Shown: one piece after another, positions 6,357 through 15,230 of the stretch
Numbering within the stretch: position 1 is the first letter of the stretch
Layout: every line of letters begins with the position of its first letter
Assembly (NCBI GenBank): GCA_020692205.1
Contig: JAIMKV010000018.1
Location: forward strand, 594-24,593
Origin: Myxosarcina sp. GA_180221_E-2-1-MAG-40_15
GTDB taxonomy: Bacteria; Cyanobacteriota; Cyanobacteriia; Cyanobacteriales; Xenococcaceae
Direction of reading: 5' to 3'
Length of the DNA stretch: 24,000 nt
Position numbers and translations under genes: made by a program
The notes under the pieces: model-generated
The model's database searches: none
The model's input: the letters and a program-made list of their open reading frames with translations, nothing else
Told to the model about the DNA's origin: nothing

Positions 6357-8444
6357 ATGTGGAAATCATTTAATAGCAAAAACTTTTTATTAATTAGTAT
6401 TAGTCTTGTATCAACATTAATCGGCTTAAAAGCTTTAATTATTGCTCAAACAAATACAAATTTTGCTCAAGGTATTAGACAAGTTTTTCCAGGTAAACCA
6501 ACAATTGCTCTAAATAAATCGAGCGCAAATACCCGCCATAGTTTTTTACTGGCAGCAGATTTAATTGACCGCAAACAGGGTAAAGAAGCTCTAGCAGAAT
6601 TACAGGGTTTAGAGCGAGAATATCCTTTATTAGCTGCTCATGTTTTGTTGTCTCAAGGTAAAGCTTATCAGCTCGAAAAAAACTTTAAAGCAGCAGCAAA
6701 GATTTGGCAGAAATTAGTCATCGAATATCCTACCGCTTCGGCTTCGGCAGAAGCACTATATTTATTAGGTAAGTCTAATTCTGCTTATTGGCAACAGGCG
6801 ATCGCCCAGTTTCCAGCTCATCCCCGCATCCATGAAATTATCCGTCAGCAGTTAAGCTTAAATCCGAACCAACCGCATTTGATGGCAGTCTTGGTTAAAT
6901 ATACTCCTGATGATCCTGGAGTAGACCAAATGAAAGAGCGTCTGGTTGAAGAATATGCCAGCCAGTTGACTCCTGAAGAGTGGGAGGCGATCGCCGATAG
7001 TTATTGGTTAAAATGGGACTACGTCGAGGCAGGCAAAGCCTACGCTAAAGCTCCTATTACTTCTCAAAACCTTTACCGTGCAGGCAGGGGATATCATCTA
7101 GGCAACGATCAAACCACTGCTAAACAATATTATCTTCAGTTAATTCAGCAATATCCTCATGCTGATGATACAGGCTGGGGTTTACGCCGTCTAGCTACCT
7201 TAGTCAATAAAACAGAAGCAGTGACTTATCTAGATCGGGCAATTAAGCAATTTCCTGCACAAGCACCAGAAGCCCTGGTTGAAAAAGCACAATTTCTTGA
7301 AGCACTCAATAGTTTTAAGTCCGCTGCTAATGCCCGACAAACTTTATTAACCGATTATAAACACTCTGAAGCAGCAGCTAACTATCGCTGGGACATTGCT
7401 AGTCAGAAAGCTGAAGCGGGAGATTTAATTACCGCCTGGCAATGGGCGCAACCGATTGTAGTTAATAATCCTCATAGTTTAATAGCACCCAAGGCTGGTT
7501 TTTGGATTGCTAAATGGGCCGAAAAGCTCAATCGTCCCCAAGATGCTAATACCGCTTATAAATCAGTCTTGACTCGTTTTCCCCGCTCATATTATGCTTG
7601 GCGTTCGGCAGTAGCTTTAGGATGGAATGTAGGAAACTTTACCACAGTACGCCATAAAGATCCTCAAGTAGTTAAAACGAGTAAAATAACTCCTCCAGGA
7701 GGCTCGCAAACCTTCCAAGAATTATACAAATTAGGGCTAGAACCACAAGCCTGGGCGCAATTTCAAACTGAAATTAGCGATCGCACCGAATTAACGATTG
7801 CCGAAGATTTTACTAAAGGCTTATTGAAACTCTATCAAGGTCAGAATCTGCGGGGCATCAATCACATCTGGTATTTACAAGATAGAGATTCCCCTGAAGA
7901 TAAGCAACAATGGCAGCAACTGCGTCAAACACCAGAATATTGGCAGGCTTTATATCCGTTTCCCTATGAAGACACCATTCTTAAATGGTCGAAACAGCGA
8001 CAGCTTAACCCATTATTAGTTACTTCTTTAATCCGTCAAGAATCACGGTTTGAACCTGAAATTGAGTCTTCTGCGGGGGCTTTGGGCTTAATGCAGGTAA
8101 TGCCTCCCACTGGTGAAAACGCAGCTAAAAATATTGGCTTATCTAGCTATTCTCTAACCAAGCCTGAAGATAACGTCAATATTGGCACTTATTATCTTGA
8201 CTTTACCCATGAAAAATACGGCAATAACTCGATGCTGGCGGTGGCTAGCTATAATGCAGGGCCAAATGCAGTAGCTGAATGGGTTTCTCGTCATGGGTTA
8301 CAAGACGCAGATGAGTTTGTCGCCAAAATTCCTTATCCAGAAACACAAGGCTATGTAGAGTCAGTATTTGAAAATTATTGGAACTATCTATTGGTTTATA
8401 ACCCCGAAGTAGGAAAATTATTTAAAGACTTACGCACTGAATAG
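6357..8444 (+). CDS. slt: Soluble lytic murein transglycosylase (Slt70-like: helical-repeat N-domain plus C-terminal SLT domain)
   Basis: 695 aa with an N-terminal signal/anchor (LLISISLVSTLIGLKALIIAQ) and a long alpha-helical repeat region. C-terminal SLT motifs: LIRQESRFEP (catalytic Glu), GALGLMQVMP, ASYNAGPNAV. The last ~24 codons are duplicated at 13430-13501 (see repeat features). Confidence 0.85.
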   Translation: MWKSFNSKNFLLISISLVSTLIGLKALIIAQTNTNFAQGIRQVFPGKPTIALNKSSANTRHSFLLAADLIDRKQGKEALAELQGLEREYPLLAAHVLLSQGKAYQLEKNFKAAAKIWQKLVIEYPTASASAEALYLLGKSNSAYWQQAIAQFPAHPRIHEIIRQQLSLNPNQPHLMAVLVKYTPDDPGVDQMKERLVEEYASQLTPEEWEAIADSYWLKWDYVEAGKAYAKAPITSQNLYRAGRGYHLGNDQTTAKQYYLQLIQQYPHADDTGWGLRRLATLVNKTEAVTYLDRAIKQFPAQAPEALVEKAQFLEALNSFKSAANARQTLLTDYKHSEAAANYRWDIASQKAEAGDLITAWQWAQPIVVNNPHSLIAPKAGFWIAKWAEKLNRPQDANTAYKSVLTRFPRSYYAWRSAVALGWNVGNFTTVRHKDPQVVKTSKITPPGGSQTFQELYKLGLEPQAWAQFQTEISDRTELTIAEDFTKGLLKLYQGQNLRGINHIWYLQDRDSPEDKQQWQQLRQTPEYWQALYPFPYEDTILKWSKQRQLNPLLVTSLIRQESRFEPEIESSAGALGLMQVMPPTGENAAKNIGLSSYSLTKPEDNVNIGTYYLDFTHEKYGNNSMLAVASYNAGPNAVAEWVSRHGLQDADEFVAKIPYPETQGYVESVFENYWNYLLVYNPEVGKLFKDLRTE
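8373..8425 (+). repeat. Direct repeat copy 1 (left boundary of the insertion; 3' end of slt)
   Basis: AATTATTGGAACTATCTATTGGTTTATAACCCCGAAGTAGGAAAATTATTTAA aligns by hand to 13430-13482 with 4 mismatches in 53 nt and no gap. It encodes NYWNYLLVYNPEVGKLFK. Confidence 0.85.
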
Positions 8445-8688
8445 TTAGTTGTTAGTTGTTAACCAAATTACTCTGCAATGGGTAATTTTTTTTCTTTTTA
8501 ACTCTAAATATAACAGTTTAATGTGGTTAATTGCCTTGAAAATATTAGCTTCTGCAAGCACATCAACGAAGATAAAACATCATCGCACTTCAATAAATAT
8601 AGAAACTTCTAAATTTTAAGCTAATATCAATCAATTTTTTCAATTAGTTGGGAACTATATAAATAGACATCTAGAGAAAAAGCGAATA

Positions 8689-9033
8689 ATGAAATTTTTT
8701 GAGCCATCTATAGAGCAGCTAGTAACAGAAATTATAGCTGTTAATCATGCTTGGAAAGAAGCAAAGAGTTTATTTAATCTCCCTGATACCCCTTTGGCTA
8801 ATTCTCTAAGAGATTTAAAAGCGCGTTTACAGGTAAGACTTTTGCGTAAGTATGCACCAGAGAACGTTTACTTAATGATAGATACCAACGTAAATACAGA
8901 CTATGACGAACTACTTTATGGTCTACAACTGGTGACATCAGTAAACGGTAGGCGAGATGCTGCACATATGCCGATTAGGGTTGCTAAAGAAAACTTATCT
9001 GCACAAGAATTAGAGCAATTTATTCAAAGCTAA
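8689..9033 (+). CDS. Hypothetical 114-aa protein, first gene of the island operon
   Basis: Intact ORF ending 22 nt before the next gene, whose RBS (AAGGAAG) lies in the gap. No TM segment and no motif I recognise. It is predicted soluble, and the sequence looks mostly helical. Confidence 0.55.
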   Translation: MKFFEPSIEQLVTEIIAVNHAWKEAKSLFNLPDTPLANSLRDLKARLQVRLLRKYAPENVYLMIDTNVNTDYDELLYGLQLVTSVNGRRDAAHMPIRVAKENLSAQELEQFIQS

Positions 9034-9055
9034 TTTTGAAAGGAAGTAGTAAATA

Positions 9056-11182
9056 ATGATTAATAATATAGTTAATGTTATATTTTGTTTGACTGTTGTT
9101 GGAATGGCAATTTGGATTGGGATCAAGGAACGAAAATTTTCAAGTGATTATCAAAATAAAGATTTTGTCGTAGTTAAGAACTCTATCAAAGAGTTAACAG
9201 AATACAAACGAGAACCAAGAAATAATTTTATACAAGTTCAAAAAGAATCGACTGAAATTATCAGATGGCTTGCTCAACATCTCAAAGGAGAATCCAGGTC
9301 ATTAGCTTTCAAGCCAGAACAAGATAAAAATGGCGATTTTATTTTACTTTCCTACCCATCTATTCTAGGAAAACCCGTACCTCGAAGTCCTGTTAGCTTT
9401 GCTCCTGCTTTATTAACCGCAATTGGTATTCTAGGAACTTTTACTGGTATCTTCTTGGGTTTACAAGGAGTAGATTTAGGGAATCTTAGCGAAACTCAAG
9501 CACTGATAGAAGCTAGTCAAAAGCTATTAGCAGGAATGAAAACAGCTTTTGTGACTTCTTTATTTGGGATGGGTGCTGCTATCTTTTTTATTTTATATTT
9601 ATCTTGGAAAGAGAGAAAACGTACTAAAATTCGCAATGATTGGCGTAAAAAACTAAGTAACATTGCTTTTGTAGAAAGTCCTAATCATCTTTTATCTCGT
9701 TTAGATAATGAAGGAAATATAAAAGTTGCTAAAACACTTCAGAGTGTAGCTGATAATTTATCTGGTTTTAATGCTGATGTAATTGCAAATGCCATTAAAA
9801 ATGCGATCGCGCCAATAGTTTCAGAAATAAAATATTTAGAAAAAATTGATCGACTGATAGATAATACATCAAGTTTATCTGATTTAACTCCTAAGGCGAT
9901 CGCCTCTGCAACAACGGATAAATTTACACAATTAATTAATCCCATTTCTCAAGAAATAAAACAACTTCGAGAACTTCAAGAAAGTCAGGGACAAACTGTC
10001 GAAACTTTAGTTAAACAACTGCGTAACGAGTTGATTGAACCTGTTGTTATTAGATTAGATCAAAGCGCAGCATTAACCAAAGAAGCGTCCGCAGCAGTAA
10101 CAGATTTGAAAAATGAATTAGGCGGTATTAGCCAAAATTTAGCAGGTGCGGTAGAAACCATTCAAAGTTTCCAACAAGATACTCTAATTCGTCTTCAAGA
10201 ATTTGCTGCTAACTTACAATCTATTCTCGGTCAATTCCGTACCGATACTCAAGGAGTAATGGAACAAGTTGCTGTAGAAATTCAGCAAGCAGTCAACCAA
10301 AGCATTACAGGAATGGAAGCACAACGTACTGCCTTTGAAGCTAGCGCAAGTCAAGCATCCCAAACTTTTAGAGGAATTAGAGAAGACTTACAAGCAGCAC
10401 TTGATACCCAAGCCGAACAGCAAAAACAAATGTTACATGATGTTCAAACCTCTACGGAAAGCGTTCTAGTTAAAGCTAACGAAGCCTTCTTGAATCAGTC
10501 TAATACTCTAGTAACAGTAGGAAAAGAAGCTTCGGGATTAATGAGCGAAGCTAAAGCTAATTTTCTTGGCACATTAAGCAATATTGACGGAATGCTGCAA
10601 AATACTCGTCTTACAGTCCAACAGGAATTAGAACAATTCCGTCTTGACTATCAAGCAGCGTTGCAAGATTTCTTTACCCAGCAGAATAATCTACTGAACG
10701 ACACCTTAGGAGAACAAAGAGAAGGGTTAGCAGGGGTTGTAGTTAATCTACAGCAAACATTTAGTGAAGAAGCAACACAACGAAAAGAAATGACTACACA
10801 AGTAGACCAGAGTTTAGACCGAATCGGGGAAACCGTCAAAACTGTAAATACTTTAGCTAGTGCAATGGGAATGACTTCTAGTGAACGTTTGGGTCAATTA
10901 CAAGAATTAGCACGAACTATTGGTAATGAAGCACATCGTGTAGAACATAGTTATCAAAGTATGACTGAACAGTTTAATAAAGCTCTATTAGATGGCAACG
11001 AAAAGCTAAATGACTACCTCAAACAAGCTGATGAAACTTATACCAGAAGTATACAAGATGCAGATAAAGCTGCCGCTGAAGTCTGTACCAAGTTAAACGA
11101 AACTTCTCACGGTTTGATGAATACAGCAGAGTTTTTAGTATCTGCTGCCACAGAACTAAAGAATAGTAATGGAGGTAAGTAA
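9056..11182 (+). CDS. zorA: ZorA-like protein: MotA/ExbB-type proton-channel domain plus ~525-aa helical tail
   Basis: Three hydrophobic helices (aa ~5-23, ~113-136, ~160-183). The last two carry MotA/ExbB-like motifs (LLTAIGILGTFTGIFLGL; MKTAFVTSLFGMGAAIFF). Residues ~184-708 are Q/E/A/T/L-rich with no further TM, consistent with a long coiled-coil. Size and architecture match ZorA as I know it from type I Zorya, and a MotB/OmpA-like gene follows 2 nt later. Confidence 0.72.
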   Translation: MINNIVNVIFCLTVVGMAIWIGIKERKFSSDYQNKDFVVVKNSIKELTEYKREPRNNFIQVQKESTEIIRWLAQHLKGESRSLAFKPEQDKNGDFILLSYPSILGKPVPRSPVSFAPALLTAIGILGTFTGIFLGLQGVDLGNLSETQALIEASQKLLAGMKTAFVTSLFGMGAAIFFILYLSWKERKRTKIRNDWRKKLSNIAFVESPNHLLSRLDNEGNIKVAKTLQSVADNLSGFNADVIANAIKNAIAPIVSEIKYLEKIDRLIDNTSSLSDLTPKAIASATTDKFTQLINPISQEIKQLRELQESQGQTVETLVKQLRNELIEPVVIRLDQSAALTKEASAAVTDLKNELGGISQNLAGAVETIQSFQQDTLIRLQEFAANLQSILGQFRTDTQGVMEQVAVEIQQAVNQSITGMEAQRTAFEASASQASQTFRGIREDLQAALDTQAEQQKQMLHDVQTSTESVLVKANEAFLNQSNTLVTVGKEASGLMSEAKANFLGTLSNIDGMLQNTRLTVQQELEQFRLDYQAALQDFFTQQNNLLNDTLGEQREGLAGVVVNLQQTFSEEATQRKEMTTQVDQSLDRIGETVKTVNTLASAMGMTSSERLGQLQELARTIGNEAHRVEHSYQSMTEQFNKALLDGNEKLNDYLKQADETYTRSIQDADKAAAEVCTKLNETSHGLMNTAEFLVSAATELKNSNGGK

Positions 11183-11184
11183 TT

Positions 11185-11886
11185 ATGAACTCTTTTGAAC
11201 AATTTGAACCAGATACAGAAGCAGAAGAAGATAACTCAGGTATTTGGTTATCTATCAGTGATTTGATGTCAGGGTTATTAATGTTTTTCGCTTTGTTATT
11301 TATTGTCGTACAAGTTCAGCTTCAGCAGGAAATAGTTAAAGCGCAAAGACTAGAAAGAGAACTAGAAACTTATAAAAGAGTAATCGATCAATTACCTTTA
11401 AGAATAATTAGTGCAATCGAAGGTAAATTCGGAGAAGGTATTCTGGAAATCGATCCAAAAACAGGAGATGTAAAAATAGGCGATCGCATTCTTTTTGATG
11501 AGGGAAGTGCAGAATTAAAACCCGCAGGAAAACAGTTTCTTAAAAGATTTATTCCTATTTATAGTGATGTAATTTTCTCCGATAAACTTTTTGAAAGTCA
11601 GATCACTCGTGTAGTGATAGAAGGTCACACTAGTTCTAAAGGTTCTGATAAAGCTAACATGGAATTAAGTCTCAGACGTGCTTTATCGGTATCTGATTAT
11701 ATTTTTTCTGAACAACTTAATTTCAAAACAAAACAAAAATTTCAGCAAAAAATTCTGGCATCTGGAAGAGGCGAAATAGATGCAGACAAGAGTAAAGATA
11801 ATTCAAGCGATCGCAAAGTTGTTTTCCGTTTTCAATTCCGACAAGTAAACTTTGATGATTTAGAGAAAGATATTGTCAAACCATAA
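11185..11886 (+). CDS. zorB: ZorB-like protein: MotB-type TM plug with conserved Asp plus OmpA-like peptidoglycan-binding domain
   Basis: A single N-terminal TM, GIWLSISDLMSGLLMFFALLFIVV, has Asp26 (nt 11260-11262) at the position of the MotB/ExbD/TolR proton-relay Asp. C-terminal OmpA_C pattern: ILFDEGSAELKPAG...VVIEGHTSSKGSDKANMELSLRRALSVSDYI...ASGRGE...DRKVVFRF. A GGAGG RBS lies inside the zorA 3' end, suggesting translational coupling. Confidence 0.8.
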   Translation: MNSFEQFEPDTEAEEDNSGIWLSISDLMSGLLMFFALLFIVVQVQLQQEIVKAQRLERELETYKRVIDQLPLRIISAIEGKFGEGILEIDPKTGDVKIGDRILFDEGSAELKPAGKQFLKRFIPIYSDVIFSDKLFESQITRVVIEGHTSSKGSDKANMELSLRRALSVSDYIFSEQLNFKTKQKFQQKILASGRGEIDADKSKDNSSDRKVVFRFQFRQVNFDDLEKDIVKP

Positions 11887-11894
11887 CTATAAAA

Positions 11895-13385
11895 ATGAAT
11901 ATTCAATTTCGTAAAATACATTTACCTCCACTTCCAAAAGTTAATGCTCATGCTCTAACTAAGTTAGTAGGAAACGACAATAATGGCTTAATGACTCCAG
12001 TTTTACCTATTGGCGTATCTAAAAGCCAAATTGTTTCTCGTTCTAATTTAGATGAAATTATTGAAGATATTGAAAATGGCAACAATAAGAAGATCACACC
12101 TTTAGAATGGATTCACTGTCTTTATAACAAAGATAAATGGGATGCCAAAAACCCAAACAAAAGTATATCTACATCGGAAGCAATTTGGAAAGCAGCAGAA
12201 CAAAATACTTGGTTAAAACAAAGATTATTTTGGAACTTAGTTCTTAATTACGATGGTCAAAAAGTTTTGGCTTCGTCTTTAGTAAAAACTTATTCTGTGT
12301 TTTCATCTCAAGATGCGAGAGACAGAATGAGATTATTGATAATTAAATCTTTTCAATTAGAAAAGCCAATGATTGGGTTAATCAAACTATGTTGTAGGCA
12401 ATTATTGACTCCGCGTGAACTATTTTTTCAACATCAGCTTCCTAGCAAAATTCTTATTATTAAAGAATGCTTAACTCTTGTTGTTTCTCAATTTTCTAAA
12501 ATTACTTCTCCCAATCAGCAACAAGTTGATTGGCTGTTAAGATGCCTTGAAGAAATGAGTCAAGAACAACAAATTAAAGCCGTAGAATCTTTGCTTACTT
12601 TAGTCGATCCTCAAGTTGGTACAAAACACTCAGAAATAATTGATTGGTTGCGTCAATATTATGCTTCTTCTAACTCTAACTCTCGTTGGAATGAACTGTC
12701 TTCAGAAGCTAAAGCAGCAATGCGAAAATGGCTTGGTGCAGTCAGTTATCAAGATTTCCAAAAATTAGCAAATCTTGTTTTGGATCGAGTACGCTTAGAA
12801 GACCACGAACATAGACGATTAAAAAGCCGTAGTGGATTTTGGTCAAACTATAGCGATCGCTTTGAACGTATTCGTATATTATTACCTAAAAGTTCAGTCA
12901 ATATTTTAGGCAATTACCTTAATCATCAAGATGTCAGTATCTTACTAAATGATGGCAGCGATTCGACTGAAGTATGCATCTTTGATTTTGGAAACTGGTT
13001 CTTAGTAGAGTTTTTTAGAGGTAATGGTAGCGAAACTCGGATTTTCAGAAAAGATACTGAAAGTGAACAAAAACTATTTCACTCTCAATTATCAATTAAA
13101 AAACTTCGTTGCTTAGATTCAAATAATGGAATTCACGATCATGAATTTTGCTGGCAATATTTTTGTGAACAATTGTTGAGAACTAAAAATATTTTTCCTA
13201 ATAAAAATATTCAGTACTTTAAAGGCTTATCTGATGAACATGGCAAATACAACCGACAAACAGGATTACCAAAACCATCATCAAACGACTTATCAAAGCG
13301 AAAGTATAAAGTAGAAAGATGGAAGCAAACAATGGTTCAGTTAGAACAAGAAGCAAAACAGTATTGCGACTACAATCAAACATGA
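11895..13385 (+). CDS. zorC: ZorC-like protein (tentative EH-signature domain)
   Basis: 496-aa soluble ORF starting 8 nt after zorB, the position ZorC occupies in type I Zorya. The C-terminal half has features I associate with the EH_Signature family: RSGFWSNYSDRFERIRILL, FGNWFLVEFFRG (Glu372) and GIHDHEFCWQYF (His414/His416) about 42-44 residues later. This rests on memory of the family, not an HMM score. Confidence 0.5.
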   Translation: MNIQFRKIHLPPLPKVNAHALTKLVGNDNNGLMTPVLPIGVSKSQIVSRSNLDEIIEDIENGNNKKITPLEWIHCLYNKDKWDAKNPNKSISTSEAIWKAAEQNTWLKQRLFWNLVLNYDGQKVLASSLVKTYSVFSSQDARDRMRLLIIKSFQLEKPMIGLIKLCCRQLLTPRELFFQHQLPSKILIIKECLTLVVSQFSKITSPNQQQVDWLLRCLEEMSQEQQIKAVESLLTLVDPQVGTKHSEIIDWLRQYYASSNSNSRWNELSSEAKAAMRKWLGAVSYQDFQKLANLVLDRVRLEDHEHRRLKSRSGFWSNYSDRFERIRILLPKSSVNILGNYLNHQDVSILLNDGSDSTEVCIFDFGNWFLVEFFRGNGSETRIFRKDTESEQKLFHSQLSIKKLRCLDSNNGIHDHEFCWQYFCEQLLRTKNIFPNKNIQYFKGLSDEHGKYNRQTGLPKPSSNDLSKRKYKVERWKQTMVQLEQEAKQYCDYNQT

Positions 13386-13420
13386 TCTTGACTTTTTTGA
13401 AGAATCTTAATCGAACTTAG

Positions 13421-13501
13421 ATATTGAAAAATTATTGGAACTATATGCTGGTTTATAACCCTGAAGTAGGAAAATTATTTAAGCAGATCAGTGAACAGTG
13501 A
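13421..13501 (+). pseudogene. Displaced 3'-terminal remnant of the slt gene
   Basis: The frame opens right after a TAG (13418-13420) and reads ILKNYWNYMLVYNPEVGKLFKQISEQ*. Codon for codon it parallels the slt C-terminus VFENYWNYLLVYNPEVGKLFKDLRTE*. Both have the same number of codons to the stop, but the last six codons differ. Confidence 0.7.
13430..13482 (+). repeat. Direct repeat copy 2 (right boundary of the insertion)
   Basis: AATTATTGGAACTATATGCTGGTTTATAACCCTGAAGTAGGAAAATTATTTAA matches copy 1 (8373-8425) at 49 of 53 nt. Confidence 0.85.
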
Positions 13502-13529
13502 ACGCAAATAACTTTCTCTAGCTTAAATA

Positions 13530-15230
13530 ATGGTCAAAATCATCAAACAGACAGCATCAATGCAGACGAGAGATCGCGTTAGATTAGATGCAGATATCTA
13601 TCGTCCTGACACGGATGAGAAATTACCGATTCTGTTGATGCGCCAGCCTTACGGTAGAGAAATTGCCTCGACGGTGGTTTATGCTCATCCTCGTTGGTAT
13701 GCAGCCCAAGGTTACATAGTGGTGATTCAAGATGTGCGGGGTAGAGGAACATCTCAAGGTGAGTTCGATCTGTTTACCCACGAGGTTACTGATGGTTTAG
13801 ATACGATCGACTGGGTGTCTCAATTACCTGGCAGTACAGGAAAAGTAGGAATGTACGGTTTTTCTTATCAGGGAATGACACAGCTATATACCGCAGCGCA
13901 TCAGCCAGAATGTTTAAAGGCGATCGCTCCTGCTATGGTAGCCTACGATCTTTATACTGATTGGGCTTATGAAAATGGAGCATTTTGCCTGTTTGCCAAT
14001 TTAGCCTGGGCAATTCAACTAGCGGGGGAAACAGCACGTCTTCAAGGAGATGAAGCAGCTTATTTAGAATTACGCGCTGCTTCTCGTAATTTGCCGTTAA
14101 ATGGCTCGATTCCTGCCAATCCCGAACTGATGAGAAAACTAGCTCCCAACTCTTTTTATCACCAATGGTTAAATAACCCTAATCCCAATACGGAATATTG
14201 GCAACAGCGATCGCCAAAATATTTTTTAGCCAACGTAGATCTTCCCATGCTGCACATTGGCGGATGGTTCGACCCTTATTTACGGGGAACATTAAATCTC
14301 TATCAGGCAATGGTAGCTCAAACTAAGCAACCCCAACATCTTTTAGTTGGACCTTGGGCGCATCTCCCTTGGGGTAGAAAACTGGGTGCAGTTGACTATG
14401 GTATTGAAGCGCAAAATCCCATTGATGATATTCAAATTCGCTGGTTCAATCATTGGCTTAAAGATCAAGATACAGGACTACTGCAAGAAGCACCGCTGTC
14501 TCTATTTGAAATGGGCAGTAACCAATGGCGAGAATTTGATAGTTTACCTGACAATCAGCAAATTTATTACTTAGCTAGTGATGGACAAGCCAGTATTAGA
14601 GAAGATAGCGGCATGCTTTGGAAGTATGAAGCGACGCTCAATATTTCTCCTCATGAGTTATTAGATACCAATCTTAGTCAAACGATTATAGAATTTGAGC
14701 CTAATACAGATATTTTAGTTCATGATCCTTGGCGACCAGTACCCGCACTAGGAGGTCATTCTGCCTATCCTAGCGGCTCGTTTGACCGTTCTGCTTTAGA
14801 CTGTCGTTCAGATGTCTTAACCTATACTTCTGCTCCTTTAGAATCAGATTTACACCTCGCAGGAGCGATAACGTTAGAAATCTATTGCACTGCGGAAAAT
14901 TCTAGTTTCGATCTTTGTGCTGTTCTGTCTACGGTTAACTCAGACAATGCCGTGTTTAATTTTACTCAGGGTTATATTCGCGTAGTTACCTCGGATTTAA
15001 ATACCAACCTAATTAAAATTCCTTTGCAGGCTACCTGTATGTGTATTGCAGCAGGGAAGAGCTTGCGTCTTAGTCTAAGTGCCGCCTGCTTTCCTGCCTA
15101 TCCCGTCAATCCTGGTAATGGCAAACTAGCTTACGAATCACGTTTGCTCGATGAGTCGGTAATCACCTTATTAATCCATTCAGGAGACAACCACCCATCA
15201 AGATTAATGATGAACTTCTCGACTAAATGA
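13530..15230 (+). CDS. CocE/NonD-family alpha/beta hydrolase (X-Pro dipeptidyl-peptidase S15-like)
   Basis: 566 aa. Motifs: PILLMRQPYGR, VVIQDVRGRGTSQGEF, nucleophile elbow GMYGFSYQG, plus a C-terminal beta-rich domain typical of the family. Confidence 0.82.
   Translation: MVKIIKQTASMQTRDRVRLDADIYRPDTDEKLPILLMRQPYGREIASTVVYAHPRWYAAQGYIVVIQDVRGRGTSQGEFDLFTHEVTDGLDTIDWVSQLPGSTGKVGMYGFSYQGMTQLYTAAHQPECLKAIAPAMVAYDLYTDWAYENGAFCLFANLAWAIQLAGETARLQGDEAAYLELRAASRNLPLNGSIPANPELMRKLAPNSFYHQWLNNPNPNTEYWQQRSPKYFLANVDLPMLHIGGWFDPYLRGTLNLYQAMVAQTKQPQHLLVGPWAHLPWGRKLGAVDYGIEAQNPIDDIQIRWFNHWLKDQDTGLLQEAPLSLFEMGSNQWREFDSLPDNQQIYYLASDGQASIREDSGMLWKYEATLNISPHELLDTNLSQTIIEFEPNTDILVHDPWRPVPALGGHSAYPSGSFDRSALDCRSDVLTYTSAPLESDLHLAGAITLEIYCTAENSSFDLCAVLSTVNSDNAVFNFTQGYIRVVTSDLNTNLIKIPLQATCMCIAAGKSLRLSLSAACFPAYPVNPGNGKLAYESRLLDESVITLLIHSGDNHPSRLMMNFSTK

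Follow-up and report, generated by a model that had tools for sequence, protein, structure and literature searches.

A ZorD-less Zorya cassette with an additional small gene in a cyanobacterial genome: a probable member of a distinct Zorya lineage

What is an operon of zorA, zorB and zorC that has no zorD and carries an additional small gene at its front? The question is raised by a four-gene locus in a 24,000-nt stretch of DNA (from here: the window) of the cyanobacterium Myxosarcina sp. GA_180221_E-2-1-MAG-40_15 (assembly GCA_020692205.1, contig JAIMKV010000018.1, positions 594 to 24,593). The locus extends over positions 8689-13385 of the window and consists of four open reading frames (ORFs) on the + strand with spacings of 22, 2 and 8 nt: a small leading gene, here called g1, followed by genes 2 to 4, which correspond to zorA, zorB and zorC of the Zorya systems. 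We consider it likely that this locus belongs, as a complete and horizontally acquired member, to a distinct Zorya lineage with the composition g1-ZorA-ZorB-ZorC, which lacks ZorD and possesses an extra small subunit. The g1-ZorABC arrangement looks like an undescribed fourth Zorya architecture and not like a broken copy.

Three Zorya types are recognised in the literature up to August 2026, namely zorABCD (type I), zorABE (type II) and zorFABG (type III), and type I is treated as an operon of four genes, none of which is dispensable. In current models of these systems, the last step falls to a nuclease, which is ZorD for type I and ZorE for type II. The statement in a preliminary description of the present locus, made from the DNA letters, that the described types always add an effector was overstated, as no nuclease domain has been recognised in ZorF and ZorG of type III (PMC8565338, PMC11890865). 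No mention of a fourth Zorya type, of further Zor components or of a ZorABC set lacking ZorD was found in the literature up to August 2026, although an earlier passing mention is possible. Neither the architecture nor g1 appears to have been described, though the hidden Markov models of PADLOC already capture ZorA, ZorB and ZorC singly; PADLOC also has a relaxed "other" class for incomplete Zorya sets. Since the published ZorA phylogeny admitted only canonical gene orders, by an explicit filter (PMC11946911), it would have excluded g1-ZorABC.

The protein encoded by gene 2 matched Pfam MotA_ExbB with 26.1 bits (cut-off 22.9 bits) and the PADLOC ZorA1 model PDLC00597 over residues 6-705 (E=9.5e-269, 892 bits). 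It has three hydrophobic segments (1-24, 115-137 and 161-184) and an acidic tail of about 520 aa with a Q+E content of 18-19%; matches to solved ZorA chains included 8vvn_C (3.3e-8) and 8qyh_A. In the precomputed Pfam list, the newer family PF28082 (ZorA-like_t1) weakly matched both the window ZorA (L001 7162-9288) and a Vibrio ZorA1, while our own Pfam scan did not report this family. Gene 3 starts 2 nt past zorA. Its product matched Pfam OmpA (53.6 bits), weakly MotB_plug and, over its full length, the PADLOC ZorB1 model PDLC00609 (E=2.6e-79, 264 bits), as well as the solved ZorB chains 8vvi_A, 8qyd_F and 8vvn_B. A single transmembrane (TM) segment spans residues 19-51 and includes Asp26. 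The features that characterise Zorya of any type are present here, namely a ZorA channel with a long helical tail and an adjacent ZorB with a TM Asp and a peptidoglycan-binding domain. Judged by sequence, both proteins bear all hallmarks of a ZorA5B2 peptidoglycan-anchored, ion-driven motor with a long cytoplasmic tail, and by homology they would assemble as ZorA5B2 and work as such a motor. In some cassettes of the Oscillatoriales type, two tandem ZorB paralogues were observed between ZorA and ZorC (L012 8362-9827, L020 8446-9902 and L080 8439-10004).

Gene 4 encodes the EH-signature protein that follows zorB in type I. It matched Pfam EH_Signature with 91.4 bits (cut-off 27.5 bits) and the PADLOC ZorC1 model PDLC00618 over residues 1-491 (E=1e-197, 656 bits). 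Among 26 aligned ZorC homologues, the residues E372, H414, D415 and H416 are invariant, and EH_Signature is the sole domain in every one of them. The spacing from E372 to H414/H416 (+42/+44) compares with +43 between E400 and H443 in EcZorC, two residues that are needed for DNA binding and defence (PMC11946911). ZorC is strongly basic, with an isoelectric point of 9.2 and a charge of +14.5, and the ZorA tail is acidic. Its AlphaFold2 (AF2) model, with a predicted local distance difference test (pLDDT) value of 85, begins with an N-terminus of low confidence, continues with a body of helical repeats (52-317) and an alpha/beta EH domain (325-430), and ends in one long C-terminal helix. Searches of the PDB with the single sequence and with a profile gave no relevant match, NCBIfam gave none, and among the PADLOC ZorC models only the clade-specific one detected this protein. 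By these comparisons, the ZorC of this clade is very distant from canonical ZorC. The databases contained 336 ZorC homologues, and every taxonomically named one is cyanobacterial. One homologue of 768 aa (P0090, 43% identity) combines EH_Signature with many WD40/beta-propeller Pfam matches, i.e., it is a ZorC-propeller fusion.

These results bear out every detail of what the preliminary description had read from the letters: four co-oriented genes with gaps of 22, 2 and 8 nt, exactly as in the ORF coordinates; a MotA/ExbB-like gene 2 with three TM segments and a long Q/E-rich tail; a gene 3 with a MotB-like TM Asp and an OmpA-type domain; and a 496-aa, EH-signature-like product of gene 4. The Pfam families it had named (MotA_ExbB, OmpA, EH_Signature) and the Zorya models were all matched.

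The census of related loci was based on a profile scan in which a single genome represented each GTDB species; it yielded 154 confirmed hits, mainly in cyanobacteria. The best 80 of these 154 loci were analysed, each with 10-kb flanks, and scored by script. Downstream genes were evaluated at the 70 cyanobacterial loci with at least 3.5 kb past the cassette, using a co-oriented ORF of at least 600 aa at most 700 nt from ZorC as the criterion. Such an ORF occurred at two loci, L074 and L080. The SNF2 helicase at L074 was rejected as a ZorD because it is of the DpdE/DrmD type (695 and 335 bits) and part of an adjacent helicase-methylase cluster, and the large ORF at L080 was rejected as it encodes a sacsin-like protein. 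Other large neighbouring ORFs were heterogeneous and included arginine decarboxylase, acetyl-CoA synthetase and Hsp70, among others. ZorD was found beside the cassette at none of the 70 cyanobacterial loci and at none of five remote loci recognised through g1 (see below), and neither the island that holds the present cassette nor the 24-kb window contains one, the largest ORF of the window having 708 aa. An iterative helicase sweep of all flanks and a tblastn search with the ZorD of Zymomonas pZA1001, whose zorABCD operon (L094) served as the canonical comparator, likewise detected no ZorD in the window or beside the cassettes; matches were limited to two distant flanking fragments (L029, L004).

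Presence of g1 and intactness of the four genes were counted at the 62 cyanobacterial species loci with sufficient upstream DNA, and a g1 homologue lies directly 5′ of ZorA at 55 of them, often overlapping the zorA start or ending a few nt before it. The recurrence of a leading 114-aa gene plus ZorABC in the absence of ZorD, which the preliminary description had put forward for comparison across genomes, was thereby established. L062 is the only locus with an intact ZorABC but no g1. A g1 profile recovered 138 clusters (at 50% identity) among 1.84 billion representatives; all of these proteins are small, mostly about 100-140 aa, and no fusion to a large protein or another domain occurred among the 138 clusters. 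Remote homologues were present in Vibrio neonatus, V. ezurae and V. breoganii, in a family labelled Flavobacteriales in NCBI and in metagenomic contigs. Five remote contexts were inspected, one from Vibrio (L085) and four from metagenomic contigs (L087, L089, L090 and L091). In all five, g1 was part of a cassette with ZorA, ZorB and an EH-signature protein and never stood outside it, and no g1-like sequence was found in the canonical Zymomonas zorABCD. We conclude that g1 is the clade-defining, conserved fourth subunit of this Zorya clade.

What g1 resembles was addressed by several searches. There was no match to Pfam, PADLOC or NCBIfam (for Pfam and PADLOC none at E<=1), none to the PDB by single sequence, profile or Foldseek, and none to BFVD by Foldseek. 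In the AF2 model, which is confident (pLDDT 90), a hairpin of helices (8-29, 35-55) is combined with a sheet of three strands and two further short helices. The g1 product is a soluble protein of about 113 aa, and its predicted fold is an orphan. The possibility that g1 is a split-off domain of ZorD or ZorC was not supported, as hhalign comparisons of its profile with canonical ZorD and ZorC gave nothing significant. A His-Me/HNH-type mini-nuclease, considered for its beta-beta-alpha end and conserved His93, was also discarded, as fold and profile matches were lacking and the His is misplaced.

The cassettes of the remote contexts vary in detail. The Vibrio locus L085 has the composition g1-818-213-473 and L087 g1-662-218-504, while L089 and L091 likewise contain the set of g1, ZorA, ZorB and EH-signature protein; in L090 (579-5455) the order is permuted to g1-ZorB-ZorA-ZorC and the cassette stands back to back with the BREX genes BrxL and PglZ. 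The proteins of L085 and L087, the two loci scanned in this way, match the same PADLOC trio as those of the window (PDLC00597/PDLC00609/PDLC00618), and the trio therefore marks one lineage. Directly after g1-ZorABC, the Vibrio neonatus locus (AP024886.1) contains a second module (L085 14871-19471) with a ZorA1 of 630 aa, a ZorB1 of 246 aa, a 321-aa protein and a second ZorB1-like protein of 322 aa; its PADLOC subfamilies differ from those of the cassette, and no ZorC or ZorD was present within the sequence examined.

All four genes are intact at 48 of the 62 loci. The other 14 have split or truncated genes and come mostly from Nostoc assemblies; at one further locus g1 contains an in-frame stop. 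Values of omega, computed for each of the four genes against five relatives, were 0.09-0.25 for g1, 0.12-0.28 for ZorA, 0.05-0.22 for ZorB and 0.30-0.37 for ZorC, the fastest-evolving of the four. With omega between 0.05 and 0.37 overall, purifying selection acts on each of the four genes. Disrupted loci such as L033, L036, L037, L047, L048, L058, L065, L070, L072, L073 and L081 belong mostly to the Nostocales, chiefly Nostoc, and include several metagenome bins; here ZorA, ZorB or ZorC is split or truncated at an otherwise syntenic site, which could be real decay or assembly error.

The boundaries of the cassette in the window could be defined precisely. A 61-nt direct repeat brackets it (8365-8425 and 13422-13482, 90% identical, 5,057 bp apart), its sequence being that of the 3′ end of the SLT transglycosylase gene upstream. 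The corresponding empty site was identified in L092 (GCA_036703275.1; 10990-11135), the closest relative with a long contig, through its SLT homologue, which is 89% identical; two degenerate-pattern scans of metagenome contigs for an empty site found none. Gene order in L092 is identical to that in the window, but the S15 peptidase gene starts 22 nt after the SLT gene. In the junction alignment, the left repeat copy equals the empty-site sequence up to ...GGAAAATT(A/G)TTTAA and diverges beyond, and the right junction runs into the native SLT end ...KQISEQ* (empty site: ...KQINEQ*), collinear with the start of the S15 peptidase gene. According to this alignment, the insert holds a 244-nt leader and the four genes, and nothing more (Table 1). 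With just 36 nt from the ZorC stop to the right repeat, a ZorD remnant would not fit. The insertion is a discrete one of 5,057 bp and brought in the four genes together as a unit. The island contains no gene for an integrase, transposase, helicase or nuclease, in agreement with the earlier reading of a repeat-bounded island free of helicase and nuclease genes. The GC content is 0.32-0.37 across the cassette and about 0.40-0.45 in the flanking genes. A scan for consensus promoters and terminators gave nothing informative.

Table 1. Coordinates of the features of the island and its junctions in the 24,000-nt window
Feature	Position	Strand	Basis or remark
Left repeat copy	8365..8425	+	Inside 3′ end of SLT lytic transglycosylase gene (6357-8444)
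Island-borne replacement tail of SLT gene, six codons (...KDLRTE*)	8426..8444	+	No empty-site counterpart past left repeat
AT-rich non-coding leader, 244 nt, presumed promoter region	8445..8688	+	Consensus promoter scan uninformative
g1, 114 aa, soluble	8689..9033	+	No family match; conserved directly 5′ of ZorA
ZorA (gene 2), 708 aa	9056..11182	+	Pfam, PADLOC, TM segments, solved-chain matches
ZorB (gene 3), 233 aa	11185..11886	+	Pfam, PADLOC, TM segment with Asp26, solved-chain matches
ZorC (gene 4), 496 aa	11895..13385	+	Pfam EH_Signature, PADLOC, invariant residues
Right repeat copy (13422-13482) and displaced native SLT 3′ end (...YNPEVGKLFKQISEQ*)	13422..13501	+	Junction alignment

One of the described systems close to the cassette is type I (zorABCD; E. 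coli NCTC9026 EcZorI, PMC11946911). Shared with it are a MotA-like ZorA with a very long helical tail, a ZorB with Asp and OmpA-type domain, an EH-signature ZorC in which the E...H spacing is kept, the order A-B-C, and the assignment of all three proteins to type I models in PADLOC. In contrast to type I, ZorD (SNF2 helicase/Mrr-like nuclease), by which that type is recognised, occurs in no member here, and the conserved g1 before zorA is absent from the Zymomonas operon. With type III (zorFABG; PMC8565338) the cassette has in common the number of four genes, one before zorAB and one after, with unassigned accessory functions and without a recognisable nuclease or helicase. However, g1 and ZorC match neither ZorF (DUF3348) nor ZorG (DUF2894) in PADLOC or Pfam, and the trailing gene is an EH-signature ZorC. 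The likeness to type II (zorABE) lies in the ZorAB core, with secondary matches to the ZorA2 and ZorB2 models, whereas none of the four proteins matched the HNH nuclease ZorE and an EH-signature protein and g1 are found instead. MotAB, ExbBD and TolQR share the MotA_ExbB channel domain, the MotB-like TM Asp and the OmpA-type anchor, but only ZorA has the tail of about 520 aa, and flagellar, TonB or TolA partners are missing nearby. Nor does the pair qualify as a flagellar stator: NCBIfam MotB, MotS and MotD were matched with 20-30 bits against cut-offs of 259-312, the best matches are the Zor families, and the host is a cyanobacterium (Ycf66, PsbX, highly iterated palindrome 1 (HIP1)).

By analogy to the E. 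coli type I system, ZorAB of this lineage would sense the envelope perturbation at phage entry (PMC11946911, PMC11890865), with ZorB anchoring the motor to peptidoglycan, ion flow through Asp26 rotating the ZorA tail, and the tail recruiting the basic, putatively DNA-binding ZorC. We propose that g1, made together with ZorA and often from overlapping or closely spaced frames, replaces ZorD as the partner of ZorC at the tail, where it may be an adaptor or activator or may supply the missing effector activity, and that invading DNA would be neutralised locally without an SNF2 helicase-nuclease. The replacement of ZorD by g1 is suggested by two things only, the strict genetic linkage and the co-expression geometry. 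More tentatively, the lineage could constitute a fourth Zorya type that confers immunity without a helicase-nuclease, in which either g1, by itself or together with ZorC's EH domain, acts as a DNA-inactivating effector of a new kind, or ZorAB and ZorC mechanically block or sequester phage DNA at entry; we regard this as possible, though rather less probable than not.

The preliminary description had left the choice between an undescribed minimal or alternative Zorya subtype and a decayed type I system, i.e., a canonical zorABCD that lost zorD and is non-functional or heading for loss. Decay would agree with the best PADLOC matches being to models labelled type I and with the pseudogenisation at 14 of the 62 related loci, about a fifth. 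Yet a deletion peculiar to this site would imply an adjacent ZorD in most homologous loci, and the opposite was observed, with ZorD absent from the 70 related cyanobacterial and five remote loci; moreover, the four genes are intact here, as they are at 48 of the 62 loci, they evolve under purifying selection, the ZorC stop lies 36 nt from the island boundary, and the island was inserted as a four-gene unit. Decay is thus contradicted by the census and extremely unlikely. The census instead supports an undescribed alternative subtype, while the word "minimal" does not fit a cassette of four conserved genes, as many as in type I, with g1 in the place of ZorD. Another possibility is that ZorABC and g1 sense or mark the invader and that a nuclease or helicase encoded elsewhere (an unlinked ZorD-like protein, a housekeeping nuclease, or a DISARM/Dpd or BREX neighbour) destroys the DNA. 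Such a division of labour is in line with E. coli, where the nuclease is ZorD and ZorC is confined to binding DNA (PMC11946911), with the undetectability of a catalytic domain in g1 or ZorC, and with the helicase-containing systems that adjoin some cassettes. We judge it unlikely, considering that the cassette is mobile and conserved as a self-contained four-gene unit across very different genomes and sites, that most loci have no defence neighbour, and that Zorya effectors of other species fail to cross-complement in E. coli, which suggests tightly co-evolved partners (PMC11946911).

Little weight is also given to an abortive infection mechanism, in which ZorAB would itself be the effector through ion leak or membrane depolarisation, with ZorC and g1 as cytoplasmic sensors or gates. 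This was the original Zorya hypothesis, as cited in PMC11946911 and PMC8565338; it would suit a cassette without a nuclease, and type II provides population-level immunity at a fitness cost (PMC11890865). Type I immunity, however, is direct and non-abortive, and the depolarisation model was rejected for it (PMC11946911); the conservation of the ZorA tail and of the DNA-binding EH motif points to a cytoplasmic, DNA-directed step. Finally, the proteins might form a cyanobacterial envelope machine of the MotAB/TolQR kind with a non-immune role in envelope stress, septation or gliding. The housekeeping neighbours in the window and the Nostoc cassettes, which are syntenic across many species among housekeeping genes and in this respect less typical of defence islands, speak for such a role. 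It is nonetheless very unlikely in view of the patchy distribution with an empty site in a close relative, a plasmid-borne copy, frequent pseudogenisation, the defence-island context of some copies and a specific relationship to Zorya models and not to Mot, Tol or Exb.

The synteny of the Nostoc cassettes is one of several observations that weigh against our view of the locus as a complete member of a distinct Zorya lineage. Our searches for ZorD covered the window and the cassette flanks, so an unlinked ZorD may exist elsewhere in the genome. Similarity of g1 to known domains is undetectable, and the role proposed for it derives from linkage. The AF2 model of ZorC retrieved no solved structure by Foldseek, and ZorC aligned weakly with the canonical Zymomonas ZorC (hhalign E=0.2), even though the aligned RxxFW...VVE core is plausible. 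A nuclease-free effector step would be unprecedented in ZorC-containing systems, because type I of E. coli depends on each of its genes, ZorD included, and its ZorC does no more than bind DNA (PMC11946911). For every member of the clade, an anti-phage function is ascribed by analogy; the defence-island neighbours at some loci and the patchy, mobile distribution lend indirect support to a defence role.

If the g1-ZorABC cassettes are a distinct lineage, the sensor motor and the presumably DNA-binding ZorC have been kept in a large group of systems in which ZorD was never observed and a small protein with a predicted orphan fold is retained instead. The lineage occurs widely in a phylum of ecological importance and lacks the very component to which the execution of type I immunity is attributed. 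It would constitute a natural experiment on the function of ZorC on its own and on what is recruited by the ZorA tail, and g1 is a new subunit family. Where type I rules demand a ZorD, such loci would probably be left as incomplete or "other" Zorya; if so, the prevalence of Zorya may be mis-estimated in cyanobacteria, the hosts of ecologically important cyanophages.

With regard to the genomic context, the neighbours in the window are all housekeeping genes (FGGY kinase, Ycf66, PsbX, AccC, SLT, S15 peptidase, amine oxidase, E2 acyltransferase and HisRS), and most of the related loci likewise have no defence neighbour. In Waterburya the cassette is located at a different chromosomal site, and one copy resides on a mobilizable 312-kb plasmid (Nostoc sp. 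HK-01 plasmid2, L084). A scan of viral contigs found no cassette. On the HK-01 plasmid (L084 10855-19371), the cassette is followed by co-oriented genes for a DpdE/DrmD-like helicase, a DNA-modification enzyme of 1,281 aa, a hypothetical protein and a DEAD/DEAH helicase of 1,782 aa; these neighbours are a separate, DISARM/Dpd-like defence system, forming a small defence island. The L074 locus, with its helicase at 11855-14704, is near-identical to this plasmid locus. At L080 (12259-20221), a sacsin-like HATPase protein of 856 aa and a NOV_C protein of 1,799 aa are encoded co-oriented after ZorC; both weakly match PADLOC TmtA and may be another defence candidate.

Repeats bracket other cassettes as well. 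At L012 (5475-5560 and 11576-11661) they consist of an 86-nt palindromic element resembling a miniature inverted-repeat transposable element (MITE), and intergenic direct repeats are found at L080 (5521-5787 and 11883-12157, 275 nt) and L077 (5936-6305 and 11435-11818, 384 nt). These were rejected as instances of the same target duplication as in the window, being MITE-like or longer intergenic repeats instead.

The HIP1 motif GCGATCGC occurs at 28 sites in the window compared to 0.18 expected by chance. Five of these are located in the 5.06 kb of the island (9803, 9896, 11480, 11807 and 12853) and 23 in the 18.9 kb of flanking DNA. The density is thus equal in the low-GC island and its flanks, which therefore points to a cyanobacterial history of the cassette.

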